Below are positions 7,711-41,341 of a stretch of DNA of 64,000 nt, piece by piece (the stretch's first letter is position 1; each line of letters starts with the position of its first letter). This DNA comes from Oscillospiraceae bacterium (GTDB lineage: Bacteria > Bacillota > Clostridia > Oscillospirales > CAG-272), in NCBI GenBank assembly GCA_015063855.1, contig SVTI01000001.1, forward strand, positions 8,017 through 72,016, read 5' to 3'. The notes below the pieces were generated by a model. It was not told the origin of the DNA. It was given only the letters and a program-made list of their open reading frames with translations, and searched no databases. The position numbers were made by a program, and so were the translations under genes.

Positions 7711-7728
7711 ATCTCTCCTTCTCCGCCA
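7711..7728 (+). repeat. 18-bp copy of the tRNA-Ser(GCU) 3' end (atctctccttctccgcca); candidate att junction of the left element
   Basis: Exact match to 39506-39523 of the tRNA gene in this window. It sits at the AT-rich to GC-rich transition. Confidence 0.6.
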
Positions 7729-7730
7729 AG

Positions 7731-7762
7731 AAAAAGGACACCTTTGGGTGTCCTTTTTTCTT
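7731..7762 (+). terminator. Rho-independent terminator hairpin (aaaaaggacacc ttt gggtgtcctttttt)
   Basis: Perfect GGACACC/GGTGTCC stem flanked by an A-run and a T-run. Near-identical hairpins recur at 48763-48795 and 49613-49643. Confidence 0.6.
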
Positions 7763-7878
7763 GTCAAACAAATCCGGAGAATCGAAAAGCCAGTAAAAGG
7801 CGAAGTCTTTTGTCTTATACATTCTTATCCTATAATACACAAAAATCCGACAGGAGTTCACTGTCGGATTTTTAATTG

Positions 7879-9612
7879 TTAATTAAAGATAATACATGCA
7901 GTTTCGGAGTTAAGTGTATTACCCTCGTCATCAATGATAATTATACGGTAACGCCCATTATAATCACGATCCTCAAAATCCGCTATAAAGGTAACATCGA
8001 TAATAAGAGAATCGGTAGTCTCCTTTTGGAGCAACACCCACTTTCTTCTGAGATCGCTGAAATATTCGATACGATAGGTGTAGGGAGCAGTACCGTAGTC
8101 TGACACAAGCTTGGTATAAAGTCTGACGTCATCACCCGTTGCGCTTACAGAAATCTCAGCAGGAAGATCATCCGCAAATGCCATTGCAGTAAGAGTGAAT
8201 GACGTTATCGGAGAATATGCCGTCATACCCTCTGAATCGGTAACCTTACAACGGAAGGTGTCATAATACTCGGCTATGTGACCCGTCACCGTAACCTCAA
8301 AACTTTCACCATCAAGCATACCAAATTCGGCTCTGTCGAGACTTGATACCGACACCCATTCATTATTATATAATACCTCCCATTCGTAGGTATAGGGTGC
8401 TGTACCGCCCTTAGGATCAACGCTAAGAGTATTTATGGTATTAGGTTCTACAGCCAAAGTCTTTTCCTCATAATCAAACCACAGAGGATAATTTATACTT
8501 ACCGTATCGGAGGTAAGGCGCTGTGCAAGAGCGTCGACAGCAACACATCTGAACTGAGCATCTGCTTTTCTGTACTCCTCGGTTACCGTAAAGCTGTAGC
8601 TTGAAGCTATAGCTCCCGAAATATCCTCGAAGCCGTTACCGTAGTCGATCTGCCACTGATATCCTATAGAAGGCTTACCACCTGTAGTCTCAACCATAAA
8701 GGTAGCCGTATCGCCTATATCTGCCTTAACACTTACGGGCTGTATTTTTATTTCAAAGGGATCAGGAATCAAAACGGGGATGATGCGTTCCTCGGTTATA
8801 CCGCATTTGTTACAGCTTCTTACATCCTTGCCTTCGTCATCATAAGTAGGGAGAACGCTTACAGACCAATCACCAAAAAGGTGTCCTAAAGCAGGAATAG
8901 TCTCAGTCTGCATTTCCCCGCATTCACACACACGGGTGTTTATACCATCATCAGTGCAGGTTGCCGGAGAGGTTTCCTTCCATTCACCGAAGATATGCTC
9001 ATGAGGCGGCTCCTTGAAGGCTCTGTAAAGGAAGGTAACTATCTGAGAACGGTCACAGATCATAAGGGGACTGAACTTGTTACCGCCCGTACCTGTGGTA
9101 ATTCCCTTCTCTACCGCCCAAAGAACTGCTTCGGCATAATATGCGGTATCGGATACGTCTGAAAAGGGATTATCTGCTTCAACCCTTTCATTACCCGTAG
9201 CTCTCCAAAGGAAGGTAACTATCTGAGAGCGGTCACATTTCATAAGAGGAGAGAACTTACCGTTTCCCGTACCGGAGGTAATTCCCTTCTCTACCGCCCA
9301 GAGGACTGCCTTATAATAATATGCATCAGCCTTAACATCCCCAAAGGGATTTTCAGCAGACGTGGGTTCAGGTGAGCCTGCAGCACGCCAGAGGAAGGTT
9401 ACCGCCTGAGAACGGTCACAGGTCATCTTGGGAGCAAAGGTAGTAGCGGAGGTACCGGTCGTTATAGCTTTTTCTACCGCCCAAACAACAGCCTCCTCAT
9501 AATATGCCCCTTCGGGAACATCCTTGAAAGGATGACTCGAAGCAAGCACGGTGATTCCGAAGCACTGCAGTGCAAACACGAGTACAACAAGAATTGATAA
9601 TATTCTCTTCAT
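7879..9612 (-). CDS. Cell-wall-associated protein: signal peptide, 3 SLH-like repeats, Cys-rich modules, Ig-like repeats
   Basis: Start moved to MKRILSILVVLVFALQCFG (AGGAGA RBS). There are three repeats of the form F.DV....YY..AV.WAVEKGIT.GT....F.P...CDRSQ.VTFLWRA. The CxC/CxxC modules are TRVCECGEM and SCNKCGI. Repeats carry GGTAPYTYEWE and YGTAPYTYRIEY. Confidence 0.7.
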   Translation of the reverse strand: MKRILSILVVLVFALQCFGITVLASSHPFKDVPEGAYYEEAVVWAVEKAITTGTSATTFAPKMTCDRSQAVTFLWRAAGSPEPTSAENPFGDVKADAYYYKAVLWAVEKGITSGTGNGKFSPLMKCDRSQIVTFLWRATGNERVEADNPFSDVSDTAYYAEAVLWAVEKGITTGTGGNKFSPLMICDRSQIVTFLYRAFKEPPHEHIFGEWKETSPATCTDDGINTRVCECGEMQTETIPALGHLFGDWSVSVLPTYDDEGKDVRSCNKCGITEERIIPVLIPDPFEIKIQPVSVKADIGDTATFMVETTGGKPSIGYQWQIDYGNGFEDISGAIASSYSFTVTEEYRKADAQFRCVAVDALAQRLTSDTVSINYPLWFDYEEKTLAVEPNTINTLSVDPKGGTAPYTYEWEVLYNNEWVSVSSLDRAEFGMLDGESFEVTVTGHIAEYYDTFRCKVTDSEGMTAYSPITSFTLTAMAFADDLPAEISVSATGDDVRLYTKLVSDYGTAPYTYRIEYFSDLRRKWVLLQKETTDSLIIDVTFIADFEDRDYNGRYRIIIIDDEGNTLNSETACIIFN

Positions 9613-9721
9613 GGTTTTTCTCCTGATATCGATATGTAATAATCTTTCATATATATTTATTATACCATACAGTACGCCAATGTCAACCACCCCATTATTA
9701 ATAAATGTGGAAAAAACTGTT

Positions 9722-9780: not shown

Positions 9781-11037
9781 TTAGAATATTATAATGATAA
9801 ACTGGGAAACAAGAACTACTGCGATAAGAGCAATAGGATATGTTGCCGCGTAAGCCGCAGCCACGTCCTCTGTGCCTGCAGTACCGATAAGGGTACCGAG
9901 AGCGGGAGTGGATGTCATACCACCGGTAAGAGAACCGAGGTTGTTGAGAAGACTTAATTTGAGTACATACTTCGCAAAGAGGAATCCGAGGATCATAGGA
10001 ACGATAGTCATGATGATACCGTATACGAAGTACATACCGTTGAAATTAGCTACGAAATCGATACCGCCGGGGATACCTGCGCCTACAAGGAAGAGTACAA
10101 GACCAAGCTCACGGAAGAGCTTAAGTGTGGACTCTGCGGGCATAAGGCTTATCTTACCTACTCTACCGAAGTGACCGATAATAAGAGACACAAGGAGACA
10201 GCCGCCTGTAGTGGTAAGAGAGAAGCAGGTACCGGTAAGACCATCACCGGAAAGGGGAATCTTAACCTTACCGATAAATGTACCAAGGATCGCAGCAATA
10301 GAGAATGCCGCAATTCCCATATGGTCGAGATGGAAGAGCTTGAAGTTCTTCTTTTTTTCATCTTCCTTTACCTTGATAGCGATCTTTGCTCTCTCCTCTT
10401 CCATATTAGCCTTTGTAAGCTTAGGAATAAGCTGTACGAAGAGAACAACACCGATAACACCGAAAATATATGCAATACCGTGACCAACGGATACAAGACT
10501 CTGATACTCCTCCGCTACAGTTGCCTTCGCAGCGCTGAATGCGGGAGTTGAGGTAAGAGAACCGGAAAGAAGACCGACGATCATTGCAACAAAGCCATCG
10601 ATATCCTTAATAGTATCTGCACCGTAGCCAAACACATGCTCACCGAGAAGTACACAACCCACAGCCGCAAGACCGCCTGCAAGGATTATGATAAGGCCGA
10701 GAAGCACGTAGCTCTTGAAGTTTTTCTTCATATTTGCAAAGAACTTAGGACCTGCAATAAAGCCTACACTTGTTACAAAGAGGATAAGACCGAGACTCTC
10801 TGTGAGCTCAAGCCAATGTCCCCAGTTCGCCGTTGTCTCAGAAGAAATAACGGGTGCCTCACCGGCGCAGAAAAGTGCGCCGAAGAGGAGTGCGATTATA
10901 AATACGCCTGCATCACCGAGGGCAACACCCTTAACAGTGATTCTGCCGAGAGCATATCCTGCAAAGAGAACTGCAAATACGCAGAACAGGAAGAAGGATA
11001 CTCCTGTTACGGGAATAACACCGCCGAATAATTCCAT
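9781..11037 (-). CDS. Permease of the AspT/YidE/YbjL (AAEx) type, without the central TrkA-C domains; candidate C4-dicarboxylate (succinate) exporter
   Basis: 418 aa with two hydrophobic halves and a charged central loop (KANMEEERAKIAIKVKEDEKKK). Family assignment rests on sequence resemblance recalled from memory only. It is the last gene of the operon. Confidence 0.45.
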   Translation of the reverse strand: MELFGGVIPVTGVSFFLFCVFAVLFAGYALGRITVKGVALGDAGVFIIALLFGALFCAGEAPVISSETTANWGHWLELTESLGLILFVTSVGFIAGPKFFANMKKNFKSYVLLGLIIILAGGLAAVGCVLLGEHVFGYGADTIKDIDGFVAMIVGLLSGSLTSTPAFSAAKATVAEEYQSLVSVGHGIAYIFGVIGVVLFVQLIPKLTKANMEEERAKIAIKVKEDEKKKNFKLFHLDHMGIAAFSIAAILGTFIGKVKIPLSGDGLTGTCFSLTTTGGCLLVSLIIGHFGRVGKISLMPAESTLKLFRELGLVLFLVGAGIPGGIDFVANFNGMYFVYGIIMTIVPMILGFLFAKYVLKLSLLNNLGSLTGGMTSTPALGTLIGTAGTEDVAAAYAATYPIALIAVVLVSQFIIIIF

Positions 11038-11055
11038 TGTATGTACGCCCCCCGA

Positions 11056-12660
11056 TTAGATGTTCTTCTGCTTTGTATAGTTAGGAAGAAGCTTGGGAGA
11101 TACAGCATCAGTTTCAACGCCTGCATCCTTAAGCTCTGTCTCGAACTTAGCGATGTGATCAAGAGTAAGAGTACCAACCTCAACATCCTTTGCGGTCTTA
11201 GCAGCGTTAATACCTGCATTACGTCCGAATACGATGATATCGAGGAGGGAGTTACCCATAAGTCTGTTCTTACCGTGGATACCGCCAACAGCCTCACCTG
11301 CAACGAAGAGGTTTTCTACGTTTGTGGTCATACCGTTAACGTTGATATCAAGACCACCGTTCTGATAGTGAAGTGTGGGGAATACGAGGATAGGCTCTTT
11401 ACGGATATCAATACCGTATGCCATATACATTCTCATCATAGCGGGAATTCTCTTTTCAATTGTACCCTCACCGCCGATAGCCTCGATCATGGGAGTATCA
11501 AGCCATACTGCCTTGCCGTTACCTGCTTCAACGCCGTTATCACGGTCAGAGCACTCACGGATAATAGAAGCAGCAGTTACGTCACGGGTCTCAAGGGGAT
11601 GCATAAATACCTTACCGTCCTTATTTACGAGCTTTGCACCGAGAGAACGAACCTTCTCTGTTACAAGAGCACCGAAGATCTGCTCGGGATGAGCAGCACC
11701 GGTAGGATGGTACTGGAGGGTTTCAGCATAAAGGAGCTTAGCACCTGCACGGTAACCTAAAACAAGACCGTCTGCGGTTGCACCGTAGTGGTTGGAGGTG
11801 GGGAAGCCCTGGTAATGCATACGACCTGCACCGCCTGTAGCGATAACAACGGTCTTAGCCTTTGCTACAAGGAGATCCTTTGTTTCCATGTTCATAAGAA
11901 CAGCACCTGCAGCTCTGCCCTTATCGTCGAGGATAAGCTCTATTGCAGATGTGAAATCTACAACGGGAATACCTCTGTTAAGAACCTCGTCACGGAGAGT
12001 TCTCATGATCTCAGCACCGGAATAGTCCTTAGCTGCATGCATACGCTTTCTGGAAGTACCGCCACCGTGAGTTGTAACCATGGTACCGTCAGCTTCCTTA
12101 TCGAATTCAACACCGAGGTTGGAAAGCCACTGGATAGCTTCGGGAGCATCGCAAACGAGCTTTGCAAGAAGATCTCTCTTAGCTGCAAAGTGACCGCCGC
12201 CGAATGCGTCAACAAAGTGGATAGCGGGGGAGTCATTGGGCTTATCTGCCGCCTGGATACCGCCTTCAGCCATCATGGTGTTAGCATCACCCATACGGAG
12301 CTTTGTAACGATCATAACATTAGCGCCTGCCTCATGAGCCTCGATAGCTGCAGATGTACCTGCGCCGCCACCGCCGATAACGAGAACGTCAACGTCATAA
12401 TCGGGTTTTGTAAGATCTACAGAATCAGCAGTGATTCTGGAATGAGCCTCGAGCATTGCACAAAGCTCATGGGGTACCTTATCGCCCTTATTGGGACCTA
12501 CCTTGAGAGTAGAGAACTGATCCTCACGGTAGTCGGGGTGGTATGTTTTAAGAAGGGTCTCCTTCTGCTCTGCAGTCATTCTTGCAGGCTCCATAGCGAT
12601 ATTCTCTGCTCTTGCCGCCGCAACTGCTGCGAGCGATTCCTGATAGTATTCAGAATACAT
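11056..12660 (-). CDS. Fumarate reductase / succinate dehydrogenase-type flavoprotein (soluble, FrdA-like) with a ~95-aa N-terminal extension
   Basis: Motifs: DVLVIGGGGAGTSAAIEA (FAD), QYHPTG, HYQNGG, NRLMGNSLLD. These are family hallmarks of SdhA/FrdA/NadB. Confidence 0.75.
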   Translation of the reverse strand: MYSEYYQESLAAVAAARAENIAMEPARMTAEQKETLLKTYHPDYREDQFSTLKVGPNKGDKVPHELCAMLEAHSRITADSVDLTKPDYDVDVLVIGGGGAGTSAAIEAHEAGANVMIVTKLRMGDANTMMAEGGIQAADKPNDSPAIHFVDAFGGGHFAAKRDLLAKLVCDAPEAIQWLSNLGVEFDKEADGTMVTTHGGGTSRKRMHAAKDYSGAEIMRTLRDEVLNRGIPVVDFTSAIELILDDKGRAAGAVLMNMETKDLLVAKAKTVVIATGGAGRMHYQGFPTSNHYGATADGLVLGYRAGAKLLYAETLQYHPTGAAHPEQIFGALVTEKVRSLGAKLVNKDGKVFMHPLETRDVTAASIIRECSDRDNGVEAGNGKAVWLDTPMIEAIGGEGTIEKRIPAMMRMYMAYGIDIRKEPILVFPTLHYQNGGLDINVNGMTTNVENLFVAGEAVGGIHGKNRLMGNSLLDIIVFGRNAGINAAKTAKDVEVGTLTLDHIAKFETELKDAGVETDAVSPKLLPNYTKQKNI

Positions 12661-12674
12661 TTTCTTTTCCCTCC

Positions 12675-13361
12675 TTATTTCTCTATCTCACGGGTGTTAT
12701 AGAGCTCCTTGAGCTCTTCAATGGGCTTCTGCATAAGTGCTTCGATAAGCTCATTGAAATCACCGTCTTTGATTTCTTTAACTCTGTCTTCAAGGTGTCC
12801 GCATCCGGGAGCGAGGTACTTACCGTTGATACGGCGAGCAAGCATTGCAACCTGGGGATGAGAGATACCTGCAGGACAACGTGAAGAACATACACCGCAC
12901 ATTACACAGTCGAAGGACTCCTCTGCACAAGCCTCGAAATCGCCGCGCTGAGCATATGCGATATACTGCATTACGTTAAGGCTCTGTGTACAAGCCTTGG
13001 TACAAGCGTTACAGCCTACACAAGCATAGATCTCGGGGTAAAGCTGCATCATAACTGTTTCTGTTGTGCTTATCTTTTCGATATCGTAGGGCTGCTTAAC
13101 AAGGGGGAAGAAAGGAAGTGTAGCAATGTACATATTATCTTCAACAGTTGTCTGGCAAGCGAGGCAAGCCTTAAGCTCAGTCTCACCCTTGATACGGTAT
13201 ATGGTAGCGCAGGCACCGCAGAAGCCGTTACGACATCCACAGCCTCGAACGAGCTGGTAACCTGCATACTCCATAGCTGACATAATGGTCAGATTAGAGG
13301 GTACTTCATATTTCTTACCGAAAAGAAAAATATTAACCATCTTTTCCATTTTATTCACCAA
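12675..13361 (-). CDS. FrdB/SdhB-like iron-sulfur subunit (2Fe-2S plus two Cys clusters)
   Basis: Motifs: GCGCRNGFCGACA, CVGCNACTKAC, CVMCGVCSSRCP. The start is uncertain (TTG 13361 or ATG 13349/13340). Confidence 0.7.
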   Translation of the reverse strand: MVNKMEKMVNIFLFGKKYEVPSNLTIMSAMEYAGYQLVRGCGCRNGFCGACATIYRIKGETELKACLACQTTVEDNMYIATLPFFPLVKQPYDIEKISTTETVMMQLYPEIYACVGCNACTKACTQSLNVMQYIAYAQRGDFEACAEESFDCVMCGVCSSRCPAGISHPQVAMLARRINGKYLAPGCGHLEDRVKEIKDGDFNELIEALMQKPIEELKELYNTREIEK

Positions 13362-13374
13362 TCTTTCTCTTCAA

Positions 13375-14205
13375 TTAATATTCGTCAGGCAATTCGTCTA
13401 TTTCGTCAAAGCGGAATACGGGTCCATCCTTACATACGTACTTGGAACCAACGTTACATCTTCCGCACTTACCAACACCGCACTTCATACGAAGCTCGAG
13501 AGTGGTATAAACCTGTGTGGTCTCAAATCCAAGGCTGCGAAGACCTTCAAGGGTAAACTTGATCATGATGGGAGGACCGCAGAGAACCGCGATTCTGTCT
13601 GTATCAAAGCCAAGCTCCTTTACGTAGTTGGGCACGAAACCAACGTGTCCGTCCCATTCGGGCTGTTCACGGTCAATGGTCAAATGAACGTCAACATTTG
13701 TGTCCTTTGTCCATTCCTCGATGATCTCCTTGTAGTCAAGGAGGTCTTCCTTACTTCTGGAACCGTAAACTATATCTATCTTGCCGTAACGGTCACGGTA
13801 GTGACGGCAATAGTTAATTACAGAGCGAAGAGGTGCAAGACCAACACCGCCTGCGATAAAGAGCATGTTCTTACCTGCAAACACATCGTCTACAGGGAAG
13901 GGATTACCGTAGGGACCGCGGATGGTGATCTGCTGACCAACCTCTGCAGCATGGAGCCATTCGGTAACGCAACCGCACTTCTTAATGGAAAATTCCATAA
14001 ACTCCTCGTTTGTGGGAGAGCTTGTTATAGAGAACATAGCCTCACCAACACCGGGGATGGAGAGCATAGCACACTGTCCGGGGCGGTGGTCAAATGCCTT
14101 TTTGCCGTCGGGAGTTACTACGCGGAATGTCTTTATATCGGGTGTATCAATACGAACGTCTGTGATGACACCGATCTTAGGGATCAAGGTCTCTTCTCTG
14201 TTCAT
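13375..14205 (-). CDS. FlxA-like FAD/NAD(P)-binding oxidoreductase with C-terminal 2Fe-2S (PyrK / sulfhydrogenase-gamma / AsrB type)
   Basis: Start trimmed to MNREETLIPKIG (ATGA overlap with the upstream stop). C-terminal motif: CGVGKCGRCNVGSKYVCKDGPVF. Confidence 0.7.
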   Translation of the reverse strand: MNREETLIPKIGVITDVRIDTPDIKTFRVVTPDGKKAFDHRPGQCAMLSIPGVGEAMFSITSSPTNEEFMEFSIKKCGCVTEWLHAAEVGQQITIRGPYGNPFPVDDVFAGKNMLFIAGGVGLAPLRSVINYCRHYRDRYGKIDIVYGSRSKEDLLDYKEIIEEWTKDTNVDVHLTIDREQPEWDGHVGFVPNYVKELGFDTDRIAVLCGPPIMIKFTLEGLRSLGFETTQVYTTLELRMKCGVGKCGRCNVGSKYVCKDGPVFRFDEIDELPDEY

Positions 14206-15227
14206 TTCTTTTCCCCTCCGATCTTCTTCATTACTTTTGCAATATTCATTGAAATGGGACACTTTGCAAGGCATCTGCCGCATCCTACACAGCTGTAAAG
14301 ACCGTTGTTATTTTCAGGATAATATACAAGCTTGTGCATAAAGCGCTGACGGAAACGTTCCTTCTGAGTAAGACGGTTGTTACCGTGAGCCATCTTTGTA
14401 AATTCGGAATACATGCAGGAATCCCAGCATCTGTATCTGATGATACCGTTACCGGTATCAAAATCCTTGATGTCATAGCACTGACAGGTAGGACATACGA
14501 AGGTACATGTACCGCAACCAAGACAGGTCTGGCTCATTTCATCCCATGCGGGATCGTTGAAGAGCTCCATGGTCTTGCCTGCGCCAAAACCGTCGGTTGT
14601 AAGGTCAGCCAAGGGAAGCTTCTTCATGATAGAAGCAGTCTTTTCCTTCTGTGCATCTACTTCAGCAACGTCACCATCCTCAGTAAGTGCGGAGATAGAA
14701 GCAAGGAGCTTTTCACCCTTCTCGGTGTTCGCCTGCCAGAAGAGCTCGGTTTCTGTCTTCCATACGGAAATATCACCTGCGGGATTTGTGCAGTCGATAT
14801 CGAAAGTAGTACAGAAGCAGGTCTCGGAGGGCTTTGTACAAGCAAGAGCTACGATCACACCGTGCTCGCGTCTGGAAGCGTAGAAGCTGTCTACAGGATC
14901 AACCAGGAACACGCGGTCAAGGATCTCAAAGCTCTTAACGTCACAAGCTCTTACACCGAATATGACGAAATCCTCGGATTCTTTTCTTATATCGGTAAGT
15001 TCGATATTTCTACCTTCAACCTTAAATTCCATAAGGTCTTCGGTCTGGGGAAAGAAGAAGTCCTTGGGGCTTCTTACTGTGTTGAGAGCATTGCTCCACA
15101 CACTTCCCTCCTCCCACTTTGTGAACTTGGCACTGCCGTCATTCTGATCTGTGGGAAGATATAAGGTATTTGCCTTTGCGATCTCGGCAAAGACGAGATT
15201 CATTTTATCAAGAGAACACTTAAGCAT
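14202..15227 (-). CDS. FlxB-like 4Fe-4S protein (AsrA / sulfhydrogenase-beta type)
   Basis: Start trimmed to MLKCSLDK (GGAGGGG RBS). Motifs: CLGCGTCTFVCPTCQC and CVGCGRCLAKCP. Confidence 0.65.
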   Translation of the reverse strand: MLKCSLDKMNLVFAEIAKANTLYLPTDQNDGSAKFTKWEEGSVWSNALNTVRSPKDFFFPQTEDLMEFKVEGRNIELTDIRKESEDFVIFGVRACDVKSFEILDRVFLVDPVDSFYASRREHGVIVALACTKPSETCFCTTFDIDCTNPAGDISVWKTETELFWQANTEKGEKLLASISALTEDGDVAEVDAQKEKTASIMKKLPLADLTTDGFGAGKTMELFNDPAWDEMSQTCLGCGTCTFVCPTCQCYDIKDFDTGNGIIRYRCWDSCMYSEFTKMAHGNNRLTQKERFRQRFMHKLVYYPENNNGLYSCVGCGRCLAKCPISMNIAKVMKKIGGEKK

Positions 15228-16215
15228 CTTCACCCCTCCTATCAAAAACTTCACCGGGCTCGAGGTCCTCGGTTGTATAGTTAACAAGGGGAGCTCTCAT
15301 GCCAACCTCTTCGCCTGCCTGATACTCACCGTAGCATTCGTTCATTTCCTTGATGAACTTACGGTTGAGAAGGTGGAGAGGAATATTCTGAGGACATACT
15401 CTGGAGCATTCGCCGCAGTCGGTACATCTGCCCGCTACGTGGTATGCTCTGATGATATGGAACATCTGCTCCTCAAAGGAGTTTACGGGAGCTTTATTTT
15501 CAACACCGGAATTGGGATTGTTGAATACGCAGGTCTCACAGGTACAAGCGGGACAAGCATCACGACAAGCATTACAACGAATACACTTGGAAAGCTCCTT
15601 CTGCCAGAAAGCAAATCGCTGGTCGGGAGTCATAGCTTCAAGTGCTGCAACCTCATCGAAACGTGCGGAATCGATAACATCGCCTTCCTCACCGATAAGC
15701 TCGTCATAAGCAACGTGCTTCTTGCTCTTACAGTTAAGACATCTTTCGAGAAGAACATCCTTTGCATCTACGAATACTGCTTCGTCGTCGTAAATTGTGG
15801 TAACCTTAAGACCACCTTCAACACACTCAACGCAGGAAATGCCGTCAACCTTAGCCTTAAGCTTATTTACGTCAACCATTCCTTCGCAGGATACACCGAC
15901 AGCATAAACCTTTTCGCGGTCGAAACGGTGCTCGGTGAGAAGCTGATTGAAGCTGTATGTATCGCAGGGCTTTAAGAATACAAGCAGCTTGCCCTCGATA
16001 CGGTCGGTTTTTGCAACGAGGTACTTGGAGAAATTGGAATAACAGAAATCATTCCATACAAAGCCTTCCTTCAACTCTTCCTCGGTCTTGAAGATGTGGG
16101 GAGTAACGTCATAGTCAAACTCACCCTTCTGCCAGCCGAGAACAGAATTTACGGTACCGTCGGAAAGGAGGCTTATCGCTCTGTCGAGGAGAGCGTCACG
16201 GGTTATCTTTTGCAT
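15220..16215 (-). CDS. FlxC-like 4Fe-4S protein
   Basis: Motifs: CIRCNACRDACPACTCETC and CTDCGECSRVCP. It overlaps both neighbouring genes. Confidence 0.65.
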   Translation of the reverse strand: MQKITRDALLDRAISLLSDGTVNSVLGWQKGEFDYDVTPHIFKTEEELKEGFVWNDFCYSNFSKYLVAKTDRIEGKLLVFLKPCDTYSFNQLLTEHRFDREKVYAVGVSCEGMVDVNKLKAKVDGISCVECVEGGLKVTTIYDDEAVFVDAKDVLLERCLNCKSKKHVAYDELIGEEGDVIDSARFDEVAALEAMTPDQRFAFWQKELSKCIRCNACRDACPACTCETCVFNNPNSGVENKAPVNSFEEQMFHIIRAYHVAGRCTDCGECSRVCPQNIPLHLLNRKFIKEMNECYGEYQAGEEVGMRAPLVNYTTEDLEPGEVFDRRGEDA

Positions 16216-16637
16216 CTTAAGTCCTCCAATCTCTTATTTTCGCCGAGAGCTGTTACCTTCTCAACGAAATCATTCATTGTAGCGGCAAACTTTGCACCTT
16301 CTGCCGCAGATACCCATTCAACACGGGTACGCTCTCTTTCAATGCCGAGATAATCAAGCATCGAGAAGAGCATCGCCATACGGCGGCGGGTGTAATAGTT
16401 ACCGGAGGTGTAGTGGCAGTCACCGGGATGACAGCCACAGAGGATCACTCCGTCCGCGCCTCTCTGGAAGGCACGGAGTATAAACATGGGGTTTACACGG
16501 CAGGAGCAGGGTACGCGGATGATCTTAACATCCGCAGGATAGTTAAGACGGTTGTTACCTGCAAGGTCAGCGCCTGCATAGGAACACCAGTTACAACAGA
16601 ATGCCACAATAAGGGGCTTATATTCTTTTACTTGCAT
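16203..16637 (-). CDS. mvhD: MvhD/FlxD-like [2Fe-2S] electron-transfer subunit
   Basis: Start trimmed to MQVKEYKPLIVAFCCNWCSYAGADLAG, a characteristic MvhD motif. It overlaps the hdrA stop. Confidence 0.8.
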   Translation of the reverse strand: MQVKEYKPLIVAFCCNWCSYAGADLAGNNRLNYPADVKIIRVPCSCRVNPMFILRAFQRGADGVILCGCHPGDCHYTSGNYYTRRRMAMLFSMLDYLGIERERTRVEWVSAAEGAKFAATMNDFVEKVTALGENKRLEDLRCKR

Positions 16638-18622
16638 ATTGCATCTACCTCCGCCATGATCTGATCGTTTGCAAAGCCGCGAAGATCCATTGCACCACTG
16701 GGACAAGCTACGGTACAAGCACCGCAACCCTGACATACTGCAGGATTTACAGAGGCTACGCGGCGAATCTTTGTTGTTCTGTCGGGCATACGGAATTCCT
16801 TATCGGAATAGGTGATAGCACCGTAGGGACATACTCTTTCACAGGAAGAACAGCCGTTACACATAAGCTCATTGGAGCTTGCGATACAGGGGTTACCTAC
16901 GAGCTTATCCTTGCAGAGAAGTCCTATAACCTTAGAAGCTGCCGCACCTGCCTGGGATACTGTCTCGGGAATATCCTTGGGACCCTGACAAGCACCGGAA
17001 AGGAATACACCTGCTGTGGGGCTCTCTACAGGACGAAGCTTAGGATGTGCTTCTGTGAAGAAGTCATTTGTATCCATACTTGCGGTGAGCATTGTTGCAA
17101 GAGGTCTTGCAGACTTATCAGGCTCGATAGCCGCTGCCAATACTACGAGATCGGCATCAATATGGAGCTGCTTATTATTTATAAGATCGGAAGCCTGAAC
17201 CTTGAGAACATCACCCTCGGGAACGATCTTACCAACCATACCCTTCACATACTTAACACCGAATTCCTCAACTGCACGGCGGTAGAACTCATCGAAGTTC
17301 TTACCGGGAGTACGTACGTCGATGGTAAATACGGTAACATCGGTATCAGGGTACTTATCTCTTGTAAGCATTGCATGCTTAGCTGTGTACATACAGCAGA
17401 TCTTGGAACAGTATTCCTTACCCTTCTCTGCACAGTTTTCACATCTGGAGCCTACACACTGTACAAATACTATCTTATGGGGATGCTTACCGTCAGAGGG
17501 ACGAAGGAGTTTTCCGGCTGTAGGACCTGCAGCATTTGTAAGTCTCTCGAACTCAAGGGATGTGATAACGTCCTTGGACTGGTTGTAAGCATATTCATCA
17601 AACTTATCAAGGTTGATTACGTTGAAGCCTGTTGCAACTATGATAGCACCGTACTTCTCGGAAACGAACTCGTCCTTCTGAGTATAGTCGATAGCACCTG
17701 CGCCGCAAACCTTGGAGCAGAGTCCGCACTTACCCTTCTTGAGCATTGTACAAGCGCCTGCATCAATGGTAGCAACCTTCGGTACTGCCTGTGCAAAGGG
17801 AATGTAGATAGCAGAGCGGTTATCCATGCCCATATTGAACTCGTTGGGGTTCTTCTTCATGGGGCACTTGTCAACACAGTCACCACAGCCTGTACACTTG
17901 GTCTCGTCAACGAATCTTGCCTTTCTCTTAATGGTAACGTCAAAGTTACCTACGAAACCCTTAACCTCGGTTACCTCACTGTAGGAGAAGATTCTGATCT
18001 TCTCATGCTGAGCAACGTCAACCATCTTGGGAGTGAGGATACAAGCCGCACAGTCGAGGGTGGGGAATGTCTTGTCAAGCTGAGCCATCTTACCGCCAAT
18101 GGTAGGCTTGGTCTCAACAATGTCTACAGGGAAACCTGCATCAGCGATATCAAGTGCAGTCTGAATACCTGCGATACCGCCGCCGATAACAAGAGCTCTC
18201 TTGGTAACGGGGGATTCACCGGGGGTAAGGGGTGTGTTAAGATTTACCTTAGCAACAGCCGCCTTAGCGAGGATGATCGCCTTCTCTGTACCTACAGGCA
18301 TTTCCTTATGTACCCAAGAGCACTGCTCACGGATATTTGCGATCTCTACCATGTAGGGGTTAAGACCTGCAGCTGCTGCAGTCTTGCGGAAGGTTGCCTC
18401 GTGCATACGGGGCGAGCAGGAACAGATAACAAGTCCTGTAAGATTGTGCTCCTTAACAGACTCAATGATCATATTCTGACCTGCCTGAGAGCACATATAC
18501 TGATAATCGGTGGAATAAACTACACCGGGTTCGCTCTTAATTGCTTCGGCAACAGCCTTAACGTCAACAGTACCTGCAATGTTACTGCCGCACCAGCAAA
18601 CAAATACGCCAATTCTCTGCAT
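16628..18622 (-). CDS. hdrA: Heterodisulfide reductase subunit A-like flavoprotein (HdrA)
   Basis: Motifs: VIGGGIAGIQTALDIADAG (FAD) and the HdrA signature CVGSRCENCAEKGKEYCSKICC. It has four ferredoxin-type CxxCxxCxxxCP motifs. Confidence 0.85.
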   Translation of the reverse strand: MQRIGVFVCWCGSNIAGTVDVKAVAEAIKSEPGVVYSTDYQYMCSQAGQNMIIESVKEHNLTGLVICSCSPRMHEATFRKTAAAAGLNPYMVEIANIREQCSWVHKEMPVGTEKAIILAKAAVAKVNLNTPLTPGESPVTKRALVIGGGIAGIQTALDIADAGFPVDIVETKPTIGGKMAQLDKTFPTLDCAACILTPKMVDVAQHEKIRIFSYSEVTEVKGFVGNFDVTIKRKARFVDETKCTGCGDCVDKCPMKKNPNEFNMGMDNRSAIYIPFAQAVPKVATIDAGACTMLKKGKCGLCSKVCGAGAIDYTQKDEFVSEKYGAIIVATGFNVINLDKFDEYAYNQSKDVITSLEFERLTNAAGPTAGKLLRPSDGKHPHKIVFVQCVGSRCENCAEKGKEYCSKICCMYTAKHAMLTRDKYPDTDVTVFTIDVRTPGKNFDEFYRRAVEEFGVKYVKGMVGKIVPEGDVLKVQASDLINNKQLHIDADLVVLAAAIEPDKSARPLATMLTASMDTNDFFTEAHPKLRPVESPTAGVFLSGACQGPKDIPETVSQAGAAASKVIGLLCKDKLVGNPCIASSNELMCNGCSSCERVCPYGAITYSDKEFRMPDRTTKIRRVASVNPAVCQGCGACTVACPSGAMDLRGFANDQIMAEVDAICK

Positions 18623-18635
18623 TGCTTATTCCTCC

Positions 18636-19025
18636 TTACTTTGTGTATTTTCTGAATGCGCTGACGAGAAGCTGCTGAGGAGTTTCATCGTCAACCTTTT
18701 CGGGAATGTCGTTAGGTGTCATATGATTCTTACCCTTCTCACGGATAACCGAAAGTCTTACCGCTTCGATAAGCTTTGCGGGCTCAACGCCTCTGGGGCA
18801 TCTCTCCACACAAGCAAAGCAGGAAAGGCACTTATATACCGATTCTGAATCGATAAGGGGCGCAATGTCGCCCGAATCGATCATGCTTGCAAACTGGTGA
18901 GGATGAAATTCCATTTCATCGTATGCAGGGCATGTACCGGAGCACTTACCGCACTTCATGCACTTCTTGGGGTTTACGCCGCTGCGGCGGATTATTTCTT
19001 CGCGAAGGAGATCATTCTTATTCAT
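18636..19025 (-). CDS. hdrC: HdrC-like 2x[4Fe-4S] subunit
   Basis: Start trimmed to MNKNDLLREE (AAGGAGG RBS, ATGAATAA overlap with the hdrB stop). Motifs: CMKCGKCSGTCP and CLSCFACVERCP. Confidence 0.8.
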   Translation of the reverse strand: MNKNDLLREEIIRRSGVNPKKCMKCGKCSGTCPAYDEMEFHPHQFASMIDSGDIAPLIDSESVYKCLSCFACVERCPRGVEPAKLIEAVRLSVIREKGKNHMTPNDIPEKVDDETPQQLLVSAFRKYTK

Positions 19026-19809
19026 TTCCTGCCTCCTTAATACCAAGCGCTTCTGCAAGAAGCTCTGTGAAATAAACTACAGGGATATCCGCACCGTTCT
19101 TTTCAAGATTGTAACGGCAAAGAGGACATGCGGTGATAATCATATCAGCGCCCTGTGCCTTTGCGTTAGCTACAACAGCGTTGCTCTTTTTCTTAGCAAG
19201 CTCGGGACTCTCGAGAGCGATGTAGCCGCCACAGCACTCATTACGCATGCCGTAAACAACGGGGGTAGCACCCATAGCGGAAATAAGCTCTTCCATGATA
19301 GTGGGGTTTTCGGGATCATCCATTCGCATAACCGAATTGGGACGAAGGAGAAGACATCCGTAATATGCGGCGATCTTCTTACCTTTAAGAGAATTAACAA
19401 CCTTCTCCTTAACAGCATCAAATCCGATCTTATCTCTTAACATTTCAAGGTAGTGAAGAACCTCGGTCTCGCCGTTGTAGGGCTCCTCATCTGCCATGTA
19501 TCTGTTTACCTTATCTGCAAACTCCTTATCTGTCTGCATTGCATGGTTTGTCTGCTTGATTACATTGTGACAAGCGGAGCAAACACTTACAAGAGGCTGT
19601 TCCTTGCTTCCTGCATCCTTCAATGCACGAACAGAGGAAAGCTTTGTGGCAATCTCGTCCTTGGAGGTGGTATAAACACCGCCGCAGCACTGCCAATTTT
19701 CGATTTCTTCCAGATCTACACCGAGAAGAGCGGCACACTTGCGAGCGTACTCGTCAAGATCCTTTGCCTTATTCTTCAGGGTACAGCCGGGAAAATAACT
19801 CATTTTCAT
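19018..19809 (-). CDS. hdrB: HdrB-like subunit with two CCG domains
   Basis: The N-terminus MKMSYFPGCTLKNKA is typical. CCG motifs: NWQCCGGVY and NECCGGYIA, plus CSACHNV and CPLCRYN. Confidence 0.85.
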   Translation of the reverse strand: MKMSYFPGCTLKNKAKDLDEYARKCAALLGVDLEEIENWQCCGGVYTTSKDEIATKLSSVRALKDAGSKEQPLVSVCSACHNVIKQTNHAMQTDKEFADKVNRYMADEEPYNGETEVLHYLEMLRDKIGFDAVKEKVVNSLKGKKIAAYYGCLLLRPNSVMRMDDPENPTIMEELISAMGATPVVYGMRNECCGGYIALESPELAKKKSNAVVANAKAQGADMIITACPLCRYNLEKNGADIPVVYFTELLAEALGIKEAGNE

Positions 19810-19895
19810 TGAATTACCTCCGTTTTATACTATATAGGAAAGTGCTTTGCCCTCGGTTGAGGGCTAAGCAAAAATGATTTCTGCAGTTTATACGA

Positions 19896-21272
19896 TCAAA
19901 CCATCTCTTCGGGATGGAATACTTCGTCAAATCTTTCTGCGGTCAAGAAGCCTAGCTCAACGCAAGCTTCCTTAAGGGAGATGTTATCCTTATATGCCTT
20001 CTTAGCTGTCTTAGCTGCATTTTCGTAACCGATGTAGGGATTGAGAGCAGTAACAAGCATAAGGGAATTGTGAAGGTTGTGGTGCATCTTTTCCTTGTTA
20101 GCCTTAATACCAACTGCACAGTTGTTATTGAAGGAAACAATAGCCTCCGAGAGAAGTCTTGCGGACTGAAGGAAGTTGTAAATGCAAACGGGCATGAACA
20201 CGTTAAGCTCAAAATTGCCCTGTGATGCTGCCATTGAAACCGCAACATCGTTACCCATAACCTGAACTGCAACCATTGTTACAGCCTCACACTGAGTGGG
20301 GTTAACCTTACCGGGCATGATAGATGAACCGGGTTCGTTCTCAGGAATGAAGATCTCACCGAGACCGTCACGAGGACCGGATGCAAGCCATCGAACATCG
20401 TTTGCTATCTTCATCATATCTGCCGCAAGTGCTTTGATAGCACCGTGAGCGAATACCAGCTCATCCTTAGAAGTAAGAGCATGGAACTTATTGCCTGCTG
20501 TAACGAAGGGCTTACCTGTGATCTCTGCAACCTTAGCCGCAACGGTTGTGTCAAAGCCCTTGGGTGTGTTAAGACCTGTACCTACTGCAGTACCGCCGAG
20601 TGCAAGCTCATAAAGGGGCTTTATTGCGAGCTTGATAAGCTCAACGTCCCTTTCAAGAGAACTTCTCCAGCCACTGATCTCCTGGCTGAAGGTAATGGGA
20701 GTTGCATCCTGAAGATGTGTTCTGCCGCTCTTAACGATACCTTCGTTCTCCGCCTCAAGACGCTTGAAGGTCTCGATGAGCATTTCTGCAGCGGGAACGA
20801 GCTTATCCTCAAGAACGATAACAGCTGCGATGTGCATTGCTGTAGGGAATGTGTCGTTGGAGGACTGACTCATATTAACATCATCGTTGGGATGAAGGAG
20901 CTTCTTGCCAAGAATCTGATTGCCGCGATTAGCAATAACCTCGTTAGAGTTCATGTTGGACTGTGTACCGCTTCCTGTCTGCCATACAACGAGAGGGAAA
21001 TTATCCATAAGCGCACCGGAGGAAACCTCATCGCAAGCCTGTGTGATAGCAGCAAGCTTCTCATCAGTCATCTTCTCGGGCTTGAGAATGTTGTTTGCCA
21101 TAGCGGCAGCCTTCTTGAGAATACCAAAGGCATGTACGATTTCGCGAGGCATTGTTTCGATACCAACACCGATTGGGAAGTTCTGAGAGCTTCTCTGGGT
21201 CTGTGCAGCCCAAAGCTTATCTGCAGGAACCTTAACCTCACCCATGGAGTCATGTTCAATACGGTAATCCAT
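19896..21272 (-). CDS. fumC: Class II fumarate hydratase
   Basis: The GSSIMPGKVNPTQCEA signature is present. 458 aa. Confidence 0.9.
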   Translation of the reverse strand: MDYRIEHDSMGEVKVPADKLWAAQTQRSSQNFPIGVGIETMPREIVHAFGILKKAAAMANNILKPEKMTDEKLAAITQACDEVSSGALMDNFPLVVWQTGSGTQSNMNSNEVIANRGNQILGKKLLHPNDDVNMSQSSNDTFPTAMHIAAVIVLEDKLVPAAEMLIETFKRLEAENEGIVKSGRTHLQDATPITFSQEISGWRSSLERDVELIKLAIKPLYELALGGTAVGTGLNTPKGFDTTVAAKVAEITGKPFVTAGNKFHALTSKDELVFAHGAIKALAADMMKIANDVRWLASGPRDGLGEIFIPENEPGSSIMPGKVNPTQCEAVTMVAVQVMGNDVAVSMAASQGNFELNVFMPVCIYNFLQSARLLSEAIVSFNNNCAVGIKANKEKMHHNLHNSLMLVTALNPYIGYENAAKTAKKAYKDNISLKEACVELGFLTAERFDEVFHPEEMV

Positions 21273-21307
21273 AATCTATATGTTCCTTTCAGTTTTTTAC
21301 TAATAAT

Positions 21308-22258
21308 TTAGAAATTAACGTTGCTGATAATATTCTTCAAGCAGTTAGCGCTGTTATGTAATGCAGCGATCTCATCATCGGTCATGGGAAGGATAACTTT
21401 ACTTTGAACACCCTTATTACCTACAACGTTGAGAAGGCTCAGACATACGTCGTCGATTCCGTATTCACCGTGCATCATGGTGGAAACGGTCATGGTGGTA
21501 TCAATACCGCTTAAGATACACTTACATACGTGGCAAACGGAAATAGAAACTGCGTAGAAGGTAGCACCCTTACGCTGAATAACGCTTGCGCCGGACTTGC
21601 GAACATATTCCTCGATATCAGCTTCCTTAAAGGCGGGATAGATACTGCGACTGCCAAGCTCCTTTACAGAATTACCGAAATCCTTTGCGGGAACATTGGA
21701 AACGTTTGCAAGAGACCAGGGGATAAAGCAGGAATCACCATGCTCGCCGAGAACGTAAGCATGAACGTTCTTTTGGCTGATATTGTAGTATTCTGCAATT
21801 CTTGCACGAAGACGCGCGGTATCAAGAATGGTACCGGAGCCGATGATTCTCTCCTCGGGAATGCTGGAGTACTTATGGAAGGCATAAGTAAGAATATCAA
21901 CGGGATTACTTACCAATACGTATATTGCATCGGGTGCATGCTTGGTGATCTCTCTGGATACGTTCTTGATCATATCTACGTTTATCTGTGCAAGGTCAAG
22001 ACGTGACTGTCCTGCCTTTCTCGGGATACCGGATGTAATAACTACGATATCAGAGCCCTTAGCGTCAGCATAAGAGCCTGCATATACGGATGCAGGAGAG
22101 CAGAAGGGTATACCCTGTCTGATGTCAAGAGCCTCGCCCTCAGCCTTCTCGCCATTGATATCGATCATCACAACCTCGGATGCTATACCCTGTACTATCA
22201 TGGTATAAGCGATGGTAGATCCAACGCTGCCGGAGCCGATAATAGTAATCTTGTTCAT
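21308..22258 (-). CDS. mdh: LDH-like malate dehydrogenase
   Basis: Motifs: IIGSGSVGS (NAD) and GEHGDS. The substrate loop GIPRKAGQSRLDL has Arg at the LDH Gln102-equivalent position (MDH-type). Context with fumC supports the call. Confidence 0.7.
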   Translation of the reverse strand: MNKITIIGSGSVGSTIAYTMIVQGIASEVVMIDINGEKAEGEALDIRQGIPFCSPASVYAGSYADAKGSDIVVITSGIPRKAGQSRLDLAQINVDMIKNVSREITKHAPDAIYVLVSNPVDILTYAFHKYSSIPEERIIGSGTILDTARLRARIAEYYNISQKNVHAYVLGEHGDSCFIPWSLANVSNVPAKDFGNSVKELGSRSIYPAFKEADIEEYVRKSGASVIQRKGATFYAVSISVCHVCKCILSGIDTTMTVSTMMHGEYGIDDVCLSLLNVVGNKGVQSKVILPMTDDEIAALHNSANCLKNIISNVNF

Positions 22259-22342
22259 TTAAAAGTCCTCATTTCGTTTATTTTGTTGAATATCATCTGC
22301 ATTCATTCGTTAAATAAATAACTAACTATTTAATTGTAACAC

Positions 22343-22371
22343 ACAATTGTGAATGAATCAATAACATGTAC
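22343..22371 (-). promoter_or_regulatory. Candidate sigma-A promoter of the mdh operon (TTGATT-17-TACAAT, TGn extended) overlapping a 10-bp palindrome CACAATTGTG
   Basis: Read on the minus strand: ttgatt cattcacaattgtgtgt tacaat. It lies about 85 nt upstream of the mdh ATG. Confidence 0.45.
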
Positions 22372-22574
22372 TACATTTAAAGTTAAAAAATCTACAAAAA
22401 ATCGCAAAAAATCATCTTCGTTTTGTTTCATAAGTACAATATGGTAAATTGCTCCCAAAATCCATTATTTTCCGCCACTTTTGCCATGAACAAAATGCAG
22501 TCTGATTTTCGCTCTGATAAAAGGTCAAAGTGTACTCGTTGTATTATTTATATCAAAAATTATCAAATATTTCA

Positions 22575-22603
22575 TTTACAAAACGGATAGATTGTGCTAT
22601 AAT
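22575..22603 (+). promoter_or_regulatory. Candidate sigma-A promoter of the glycyl-radical enzyme gene (TTTACA-17-TATAAT)
   Basis: Sequence: tttaca aaacggatagattgtgc tataat. It lies 38 nt upstream of ATG 22641. Confidence 0.5.
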
Positions 22604-22640
22604 AATTATATATGTTTATTTTAGTACCCAGGAGGCAATT

Positions 22641-41332: not shown

Positions 41333-41341
41333 GGTTTACAA

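Follow-up and report, generated by a model that had tools for sequence, protein, structure and literature searches.

A twelve-gene operon predicted to encode a soluble, NADH-dependent Flx-Hdr-Frd fumarate reductase in a gut or rumen Ruminococcaceae bacterium

A 64,000-nucleotide stretch of contig SVTI01000001.1 from an Oscillospiraceae bacterium (the whole of which we refer to as the window) contains an operon of 12 co-directional minus-strand open reading frames (ORFs) at positions 22258..9781. The best explanation of its gene content is that it would provide the reductive branch from oxaloacetate to succinate in an uncultured gut or rumen Ruminococcaceae bacterium, and the gene identities described below support the proposal of an initial annotation of this DNA that the whole branch is encoded. 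The central enzyme appears to be a soluble NADH-dependent fumarate reductase built from Flx, Hdr, and Frd modules that probably also reduces ferredoxin by electron bifurcation, a reading in which we place moderate confidence.

This kind of operon and the bifurcation hypothesis have already been published (2019-2020). In Pseudoclostridium (Hungateiclostridium) thermosuccinogenes, a "succinate operon" (CDQ83_RS03365-03315; Koendjbiharie et al., BMC Microbiol 2020, PMC7282089) combines genes for fumarate hydratase, the seven Flx-Hdr subunits, a two-gene fumarate reductase, and a transporter presumed to carry succinate, and the same bifurcation idea was proposed in 2019 (Koendjbiharie & van Kranenburg, Preprints 10.20944/preprints201912.0288.v1, as represented in PMC7282089). 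The operon in the window is a further member with an added malate dehydrogenase of the lactate dehydrogenase (LDH) clade. Since the mechanistic idea belongs to these earlier authors, the value of the present analysis lies in confirmation, breadth, and sharper predictions. It adds the distribution in gut and rumen Oscillospirales, the flavoprotein clade, the modular pairing of FrdAB with different NADH modules, and one exception to synteny.

Operon organization

Gene starts were placed at start codons preceded by a Shine-Dalgarno sequence, and the higher coordinate of each gene listed here is that start. The operon and the signals at its ends are, in the direction of transcription:

22333..22361, minus strand: promoter-like site TTGATT-17-TACAAT with an extended -10 TG, ~75 nucleotides (nt) upstream of mdh, 9/12 matches
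21308..22258, minus strand: mdh, LDH-clade 2-hydroxyacid dehydrogenase, predicted malate dehydrogenase, 316 amino acids (aa)
19896..21272, minus strand: fumC, class II fumarase (malate -> fumarate), 458 aa
19018..19809, minus strand: hdrB-like, two CCG domains, 263 aa
18636..19025, minus strand: hdrC-like 2x[4Fe-4S] subunit, 129 aa from ATG 19025
16628..18622, minus strand: hdrA flavoprotein, full-length methanogen type, 664 aa
16203..16637, minus strand: mvhD/flxD-like [2Fe-2S] adaptor, 144 aa from ATG 16637
15220..16215, minus strand: flxC-like Fe-S protein, 331 aa
14202..15227, minus strand: flxB-like Fe-S protein, AsrA/sulfhydrogenase beta type, 341 aa from ATG 15227
13375..14205, minus strand: flxA-like NAD(P)H-binding FAD/[2Fe-2S] subunit, AsrB/HydG/PyrK type, 276 aa from ATG 14205
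12675..13349, minus strand: frdB-like Fe-S subunit, 224 aa
11056..12660, minus strand: frdA-like flavoprotein, predicted fumarate reduction site, 534 aa
9781..11037, minus strand: AAEx-family permease, 418 aa
9732..9765, minus strand: intrinsic terminator with a 15-bp stem, 4-nt loop, and T-rich tail, operon end

No competing long ORF in 9781-22258 has database support. Five junctions overlap by 4-13 nt, namely hdrB/hdrC (8 nt), hdrA/mvhD (10 nt), mvhD/flxC (13 nt), flxC/flxB (8 nt), and flxB/flxA (4 nt, ATGA), all non-overlapping junctions have gaps of 13-86 nt, and hdrC is preceded by the ribosome-binding site AAGGAGG. The five overlaps and the Shine-Dalgarno sites agree with the initial description of 12 co-directional, tightly spaced genes. 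That description had also named one promoter and one terminator. Both sites are found at the operon ends, but promoter-like and terminator-like matches are no commoner in the region than in shuffled sequence, so that the case for these two rests on their placement at either end of the gene row. GC content is even across the operon (0.46-0.48), and an Rfam scan of the window returned no family at the gathering threshold, with no riboswitch or known RNA in the leader. The 86-nt spacer between fumC and hdrB (19810-19895) holds a 6-bp GC hairpin, GCCCTCaaccGAGGGC, without a T-run. Since fumC and mdh are absent upstream of hdrB in two relatives (L004 and L051), an internal start or processing site in this spacer is possible.

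Hydropathy analysis found no transmembrane segment in any of the nine redox subunits and ~10 in the permease, as would be expected from the earlier remark that no FrdC/D-type membrane anchor is present. A hidden anchor is ruled out by the lack of hydrophobic segments in the redox subunits together with intergenic gaps of at most 86 nt. Pfam and NCBIfam profile hidden Markov models (HMMs) agree with the initial gene assignments, although FlxC, the mdh product, and FrdAB require the refinements given below.

The FrdA-like flavoprotein and its partner

The FrdA-like protein matches FAD_binding_2 (PF00890, 239 bits) and has both the fold and the active site of the complex II flavoproteins FrdA and SdhA. 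In alignments to solved SdhA, FrdA, and NadB, the equivalents of E. coli FrdA H232/T244/E245/R248/R287/H355/R390 are H318/T334/E335/R338/R359/H431/R466. H318, E335, R338, R359, H431, and R466 are invariant in the family alignment down to 39% identity, and T334 is Ser in some members. All seven active-site residues, along with Asn127 and a His at the position of NadB Glu121, are kept in 80/80 closest relatives. An AlphaFold2 monomer of the protein (pLDDT 88.6, pTM 0.89) includes a confidently folded 88-residue N-terminal extension, and its top Foldseek match is E. coli FrdA (1kf6_A, E=3.8e-35, TM 0.72), with NadB ranked 47th. The complete set of active-site residues and the nearest fold thus uphold the original FrdA-like call.

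There is no match to PF02910 (Succ_DH_flav_C), the C-terminal helical domain, and matches to TIGR01812 (283 bits, cut-off 567) stop near model position 415-425. Among NCBIfam models TfrA (NF004900) ranks first, but its 336 bits fall well short of the cut-off of 718; the Frd models span 283-336 bits, and NadB (TIGR00551) reaches 272 bits where 453 would be needed. The FAD-linking His (E. coli FrdA His44) is replaced by Asn127, which aligns to the His of GKAHTVMAEGG in 7d6v_A, and Asn at this position is invariant across the family. In complex II enzymes, lack of covalent FAD favors fumarate reduction over succinate oxidation. Since the linking His has given way to an invariant Asn, fumarate reduction would be expected to be the favored direction here, and the missing covalent flavin fits a dedicated fumarate reductase.

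A neighbor-joining tree (BLOSUM distances, 401 columns, 100 bootstraps), although crude, placed the window flavoprotein and its relatives in a clade of their own (100/100), which includes proteins of ~408 residues and lies apart from NadB (100/100) and from TfrA-like, Sdh1-like, and Gram-negative SdhA proteins. The comparison with NadB that the initial annotation had called for therefore places the protein outside the NadB clade, with His in place of Glu121, and this separation is robust. L-aspartate oxidase is ruled out by that His (aligned to 1chu_A), the fold ranking, and the separate tree clade. A true TfrA/TfrB is ruled out by scores far under the cut-off, CCG domains that are not fused, and a separate clade. 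Judged from these alignments, the flavoprotein represents a distinct complex II-type clade with a predicted non-covalent FAD, no C-terminal domain, and an N-terminal extension. It is 100% identical to a protein of a metagenome-assembled genome (MAG) labeled "Ruminococcaceae bacterium".

The FrdB-like protein carries a 2Fe-2S motif (C-x5-C-x2-C-x13-C) and two CxxCxxCxxxC(P) motifs, and neither Pfam nor NCBIfam detects a CCG domain in it. It matches Fer2_4, Fer2_3 (weakly), Fer4_9, and the N-terminus of TfrB (40 bits, model positions 10-92), and its matches in the PDB are weak, including the 2Fe-2S region of W. succinogenes FrdB (E=4.5e-4). The existence of a natural FrdB-FrdA fusion (P0122) supports the partnership of the two proteins. 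FrdB, HdrC, and HdrB tile along the fused TfrB model, at positions 10-92, 132-220, and 413-487, respectively.

An NADH-linked Flx-Hdr module

All seven subunit types of FlxABCD-HdrABC, as identified with Pfam and NCBIfam, are encoded adjacent to one another and translationally coupled. HdrB contains two CCG domains (PF02754), each with a five-Cys CXnCCGXmCXXC set for a non-cubane [4Fe-4S] cluster, reading PGC...CCGG...CSAC and YGC...CCGG...CPLC. It aligns to methanogen HdrB 8rvv_B (128 bits). Because its score against the NCBIfam HdrB model (148 bits) falls below the cut-off of 345 and is about equal to that against SdhE of type E fumarate reductase (150 bits), it may belong to either subfamily, HdrB or SdhE. 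HdrC matches Fer4_8/Fer4_17, with 58 bits to TIGR03290 (HdrC) and 50 bits to QmoC.

HdrA is of the full-length methanogen type and has an MvhD partner. It aligns to the Methanothermococcus thermolithotrophicus protein (5ODC_A) across residues 3-661 (687 bits), where every Cys motif finds its counterpart, scores 783 bits against NCBIfam HdrA2, and comprises the N-terminal cluster domain, the FAD domain, and both the inserted and the C-terminal 2x[4Fe-4S] ferredoxin domains. At 17400-17470 it reads CVGSRCENCAEKGKEYCSKICC, compared with CVGSRD---AKVGNKYCSNVCC in the solved methanogen HdrA; this short CENC insertion after CVGSR places two extra cysteines beside a cluster-binding motif. The MvhD/FlxD protein matches PF02662 (FlpD, 187 bits), VhuD (131 bits), and the C-terminal MvhD part of HdrA2 (180 bits).

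The input side of the module is formed by FlxA, FlxB, and FlxC. FlxA has FAD_binding_6, NAD_binding_1, and DHODB_Fe-S_bind domains and scores 204 bits to HydG and 191 bits to AsrB. FlxB matches PF17179 (Fer4_22, 104 bits), HydB/ShyB (173 bits), AsrA (142 bits), and 9nez_B (172 bits). The pair thus corresponds to the NAD(P)H-handling part of sulfhydrogenase and AsrAB, and NADH is predicted to be oxidized at FlxA. The initial annotation had described two AsrA/HydB-like proteins. This holds for FlxB, but FlxC matches Fer4_8 and related families, resembles FlxB in the dicluster region only, and has a C-terminal dicluster region similar to FdhB (78 bits to 7bkb_E, residues 282-385). Given this FdhB-like C-terminus and the presence of MvhD, the docking of FdhB and MvhD to HdrA provides a precedent for the FlxC/FlxD leg.

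Supply of fumarate and export of succinate

The mdh product belongs to the LDH clade (Pfam Ldh_1_N/C). Its 60 best PDB relatives are all LDHs, it passes two NCBIfam L-LDH models (325 bits, cut-off 303.55; 342 bits, cut-off 339), and it falls just under the cut-off of the NCBIfam MDH subfamily model (281.3 versus 283 bits). The segment VITSGIPRKAGQSRLDL aligns with LDH VITAGAAQKPGETRLDL such that Arg stands where LDHs have the specificity residue Gln102 (motif GIPRKAGQSRLDL versus GAAQKPGETRLDL of solved LDHs), and the protein carries Arg171 and His195 in LDTAR and GEHGD. Every operon-linked mdh homolog with alignment over the motif has this Arg as well. A Gln102Arg change turns Bacillus LDH toward oxaloacetate. 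Because Arg replaces Gln102, we predict from LDH/MDH enzymology that the protein acts as a malate dehydrogenase, one to which automated annotation will give the name LDH. The earlier "mdh" call is thus favored by the residue at position 102, while clade membership and the LDH profile cut-offs speak for the other name. In this protein nature would have made the same switch as the engineered Q102R enzyme, and its systematic mis-annotation as lactate dehydrogenase seems likely.

FumC is a class II fumarase by its Lyase_1 and FumaraseC_C domains and by TIGR00979 (708.5 bits, cut-off 664.75). The permease has two Asp-Al_Ex domains (PF06826, 178 bits), no TrkA-C domains, and a TIGR01625 score of 121.5 bits (cut-off 71.95) that assigns it to the AAEx family; we consider it a candidate succinate exporter or dicarboxylate antiporter.

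Conservation and modularity

A survey of one genome per species found relatives of the flavoprotein in at least 591 species-level genomes, among them the cultured Ruminococcus flavefaciens and Yeguia hominis. Synteny was read on the best 80 of the at least 591 loci, which show 74-87% FrdA identity and all belong to Clostridia MAGs or isolates, R. flavefaciens and Y. hominis included. The eight genes from hdrB through frdB are colinear with frdA in 56/57 of these loci with enough upstream flank, a count that speaks for Oscillospirales only because all 80 loci are at least 74% identical in FrdA. The neighborhood survey proposed with the initial annotation has thus come out in favor of a conserved association of the frdAB-like pair with flx-hdr, as has each of its other refuting conditions that could be checked computationally. 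Among the same 80 loci fumC is present in 52/55, mdh in 45/53, and the permease directly downstream in 49/71.

More distant relatives show that the FrdAB pair is combined with other modules. One metagenomic contig (L081, 811-9771) encodes a ferredoxin, four 2-oxoacid:ferredoxin oxidoreductase (kor) genes, and hdrA-mvhD-hdrC-hdrB-frdB-frdA, with FrdA 55% identical to that of the window. Its layout resembles the kor/hdr/tfr clusters of tubeworm symbionts, and the contig ends short of where flx genes could show. Two marine gammaproteobacterial MAGs (L082 and L083, 9366-12891) encode a frdB-like gene, a frdA-like gene, and a NuoF-like gene (Complex1_51K + NADH_4Fe-4S), and here the FrdA-like protein is 47% identical to the window protein and has the same N-terminal extension. 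These three genes are a candidate for a minimal soluble NADH:fumarate reductase, seemingly undescribed.

A sister clade of short flavoproteins (406-411 aa) is found in yet another setting. In its two loci (L089, 6001-8704; L090, 6001-9497), the flavoprotein gene immediately precedes genes of fumarase type (Lyase_1, or Fumerase + Fumerase_C), followed in L090 by ComA (phosphosulfolactate synthase) and a His_Phos gene, and the genes sit inside clusters of glycan-biosynthesis type. This context suggests a non-respiratory role on a fumarate-like or sulfonated acid.

Proposed electron flow

In the reading that we favor, the LDH-clade malate dehydrogenase would convert oxaloacetate to malate and FumC malate to fumarate, which a nine-subunit soluble Fe-S flavoprotein system would then reduce with NADH. 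Electrons would enter from NADH at FlxA (FAD, 2Fe-2S) and pass through the FlxB/FlxC clusters and the 2Fe-2S cluster of FlxD/MvhD to the FAD of HdrA, where the electron pair would split. The downhill electron would travel through HdrC and the two non-cubane clusters of HdrB to FrdB (2x[4Fe-4S], then 2Fe-2S), the FAD of FrdA, and fumarate, and the uphill electron would leave through the HdrA ferredoxin domains to ferredoxin (Fd). For the last leg, thiol:fumarate reductase and type E complex II offer precedents, as in both a CCG protein is connected by way of an Fe-S subunit to the flavin that reduces fumarate. The net reaction would be 2 NADH + fumarate + Fd(ox) -> 2 NAD+ + succinate + Fd(red, 2 e-). 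With textbook potentials of -320 mV for NAD, +30 mV for fumarate, and ~-450 mV for ferredoxin, we infer a free energy change of ~-40 kJ/mol. Reduced ferredoxin could then drive H2 formation or an Rnf-type ion pump, by which energy would be conserved from fumarate reduction without quinones, and the AAEx permease would export the succinate. That FlxABCD-HdrABC-FrdAB forms one soluble supercomplex in which the HdrB clusters are a pure relay to FrdB, with no thiol or disulfide substrate, is a more specific version that we hold only tentatively.

Several points weigh against this reading. Its support in this organism is sequence-level evidence, flavin-based bifurcation leaves nothing that can be read from a gene, and HdrA homologs are also found in complexes without known bifurcation. 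Both cluster motifs for disulfide reduction are complete in HdrB, which may therefore work through a thiol/disulfide intermediate. The synteny statistic describes a single lineage, Oscillospirales, since the surveyed loci are all at least 74% identical in FrdA. Even within it there is an exception, in a Congzhengia MAG (L047, 8079-11605) in which a CitMHS-family transporter is followed by frdB-frdA (FrdA 81% identical) with no flx or hdr genes within 9 kb, the sole synteny break among the 57 informative loci. This break could be a rearrangement, a gene relocation, or an assembly artefact. The genes upstream of this pair are pyrimidine, phosphotransferase system enzyme I, and other housekeeping genes. 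Distant family members stand alone, as a frdBA pair, fused, or with the NuoF-like module. Because Hdr-less members occur, the FrdAB pair is not strictly Hdr-dependent and may take electrons from, for example, ferredoxin, and because NuoF-linked and stand-alone members occur, we do not rate bifurcation higher.

Alternative explanations

Flx-Hdr might wire NADH to FrdAB as a non-bifurcating soluble NADH:fumarate oxidoreductase, consuming 1 NADH per fumarate with no ferredoxin reduced. Electron transfer from NADH to fumarate is strongly exergonic alone, the gammaproteobacterial FrdAB-type pair is coupled to a single NuoF-like subunit with no obvious bifurcating flavin, and bifurcation is not deducible from sequence. 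Such a wire would, however, tie up a further seven Fe-S/flavin proteins kept in 56/57 loci, among them MvhD and a full-length HdrA complete with its two ferredoxin domains. This cost counts against the idea, as other members of the family make do with one subunit. In P. thermosuccinogenes, succinate is no longer formed when H2 is added (PMC7282089), which fits obligatory ferredoxin reduction, and we regard non-bifurcating wiring as unlikely. The two complete five-Cys CCG motifs of HdrB are those of disulfide-reducing HdrB and would suit a thiol-mediated system of two enzymes, in which Flx-Hdr bifurcates NADH electrons to ferredoxin and a disulfide carrier (DsrC-like or of low molecular weight) and, by analogy with methanogen thiol:fumarate reductase, the carrier thiol is re-oxidized to reduce fumarate. 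Flx-Hdr of D. vulgaris has been modeled in this way, the same arrangement is one of two options for tubeworm symbionts, and TfrA is the best-scoring NCBIfam model for the flavoprotein. Yet HdrB is the sole CCG protein of the operon, and since the FrdB-like protein has no CCG domain, FrdAB would be without a thiol-oxidizing site of its own. With no carrier gene within the operon, and a flavoprotein that is not TfrA (far under that cut-off and in a separate clade), we find thiol mediation quite improbable.

The remaining alternatives would dissociate the flavoprotein from Flx-Hdr or from fumarate reduction. FrdAB pairs, the FrdB-FrdA fusion, and lone FrdA-type genes without an Hdr/Flx neighbor, as well as the 81%-identical pair in L047 that has no Flx-Hdr locally, are compatible with an independent ferredoxin- or flavodoxin-dependent fumarate reductase, in which case Flx-Hdr would serve another acceptor and the co-location would reflect co-regulated redox balancing only. 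This would leave Flx-Hdr without a nearby-encoded high-potential acceptor and would waste energy in the transfer from ferredoxin (~-450 mV) to fumarate (+30 mV). The flxA-frdB-frdA order and its tight spacing are moreover kept in 56/57 loci, and hdrB abuts frdB even in the distant relative L081, so we give independence of the two modules little credence. Another substrate for the flavoprotein (as an L-aspartate oxidase or another enoate/2-enoate reductase) or a reverse, succinate-oxidizing confurcation seems very improbable indeed. FAD_binding_2 proteins are functionally diverse, NadB models score only moderately below Frd models, and the short sister clade sits in non-respiratory clusters; but NadB Glu121 is absent, the NadB clade is separate with full bootstrap support, the two His/Arg pairs for carboxylate binding never vary among the relatives aligned, and fumC and mdh are co-operonic in most of the loci surveyed. 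The non-covalent FAD argues against the reverse direction.

Implications

If the favored reading of a bifurcating Flx-Hdr-Frd system is true, it would constitute a new class of flavin-based electron bifurcation and would explain the energy gain and the NADH/ferredoxin/H2 balance of quinone-free fermentative Clostridia that make succinate. If, more specifically, there is a single supercomplex with HdrB as a pure relay, it would be the first Hdr-type bifurcating enzyme with a C=C bond, that of fumarate, as its high-potential acceptor. With an Rnf complex or hydrogenase oxidizing the ferredoxin, this supercomplex would support a quinone-free, energy-conserving "fumarate respiration" in several hundred gut and rumen Oscillospirales species, including R. 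flavefaciens. The operon is common, with a flavoprotein relative in at least 591 species-level genomes, and succinate is central both to cross-feeding and to the formation of propionate in the gut and rumen. Since cultured carriers exist (R. flavefaciens and Yeguia hominis), the hypothesis is directly testable. Gene names also matter here, because systematic misnaming or under-annotation distorts metabolic models of these bacteria: the malate dehydrogenase is labeled L-lactate dehydrogenase, "FAD-binding protein" or "4Fe-4S protein" is used for the subunits of the fumarate reductase, and Hdr of non-methanogens is called "CoB-CoM heterodisulfide reductase".

Surrounding genes

Divergent from the operon lies a glycyl-radical enzyme with PFL-like and Gly_radical domains (22530-24815, plus strand). 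It does not reach the cut-off of any NCBIfam equivalog (HypD, CutC, sulfopropanediol dehydratase, and others), and no activase gene adjoins it. The GTG annotated as its start probably lies too far upstream, and translation more likely begins internally at MDERLK. Further along (26590-31116, plus strand) is a 1508-residue EssC-like protein with N-terminal FHA and FtsK/SpoIIIE ATPase domains, a type VII secretion-type ATPase, beside genes for a sigma-70 family (ECF-like) factor (25852-26439) and for a product of 318 residues that has no Pfam match (24899-25855).

In the region 39433-48269, tRNA-Ser(GCT) (39433-39523) is followed by an AT-rich stretch (GC 0.29-0.40) with large serine recombinases at 43599-45092 (plus strand) and 45203-46714 (minus strand) and a D5_N/DUF5906 primase-helicase at 46884-48269. 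A mobile element, or a prophage of which a remnant is left, has probably integrated at this tRNA. On the other side of the operon, an SLH-domain surface protein (7879-9690) lies just downstream of the terminator. Within 1646-6562, ParB (2625-3545) and ParA (3505-4326) are encoded beside an AT-rich block (4001-8000, GC 0.31) in which ORFs have no Pfam match.

Comparison with known systems

By published description, the P. thermosuccinogenes succinate operon has the same gene order, the same proposed bifurcation from NADH to fumarate and ferredoxin, and a host among Clostridia that make succinate fermentatively. The window differs in its additional upstream LDH-clade malate dehydrogenase and in a host represented by a mesophilic gut or rumen Ruminococcaceae MAG. 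The P. thermosuccinogenes operon is co-induced ~4-fold under CO2 limitation, and its enzyme has been characterized by genomics and transcriptomics only (PMC7282089). In tubeworm symbionts and Thioflavicoccus, reductive tricarboxylic acid cycle (rTCA) clusters interleave tfrAB, korABCD, and flxABCD-hdrABC, and for the tubeworm symbionts Hdr-Flx has been proposed to pass NADH electrons to fumarate reductase either directly or via a DsrC-like carrier (PMC6315080, PMC11636981). A STRING-based survey lists succinate dehydrogenase/fumarate reductase as an HdrA neighbor in Ruminococcus champanellensis. Our literature search, with most subscription journals outside its coverage, found no purification, activity, or structure of such an enzyme, in line with the first impression that no bacterial enzyme of this composition had been characterized.

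The FlxABCD-HdrABC of D. vulgaris Hildenborough (Ramos et al. 2015, as described in PMC7282089 and PMC6315080) has the same seven subunit types and cofactor motifs and the same predicted transfer from NADH to HdrA. Its genes are ordered flxABCD-hdrABC according to those descriptions, in contrast to hdrB-hdrC-hdrA-flxD-flxC-flxB-flxA in the window, and the acceptor proposed there is the DsrC disulfide, in ethanol/sulfate metabolism, whereas the window operon has FrdAB and no DsrC-type gene. TfrAB of Methanothermobacter (Heim et al. 1998, as described in PMC6315080) is likewise soluble and quinone-independent, with an Fe-S subunit joined to HdrB/HdrC-type modules. In the window, the CCG modules are on separate polypeptides, the flavoprotein belongs to another clade and is without the C-terminal domain, and the predicted donor is NADH via HdrA rather than CoM-SH/CoB-SH.

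With HdrABC-MvhAGD of Methanothermococcus thermolithotrophicus (5ODC) and the Fdh-Hdr complexes (7BKB, 8RVU), the window system shares a full-length HdrA, HdrB, HdrC, and MvhD, as well as the resemblance of the FlxC C-terminus to FdhB. It has a FlxABC NAD(P)H input module in place of hydrogenase or formate dehydrogenase, and its predicted output is C=C reduction through FrdAB rather than heterodisulfide reduction. From FrdABCD/complex II (E. coli 1KF6, W. succinogenes 1QLB) it is set apart by the lack of a membrane anchor, quinone site, FAD-linking His, and PF02910, by the N-terminal extension of the flavoprotein, and by a FrdB that is barely recognizable as such by sequence and has two full CxxCxxCxxxC motifs instead of 4Fe-4S + 3Fe-4S. 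The flavoprotein fold, the complete active site, and an Fe-S subunit that starts with a 2Fe-2S domain are common to both. As in type E SdhABEF/MFR, where SdhB is paired with a CCG-domain subunit, the Fe-S subunit of the window operon is accompanied by a CCG protein, and this HdrB is the one that resembles SdhE.

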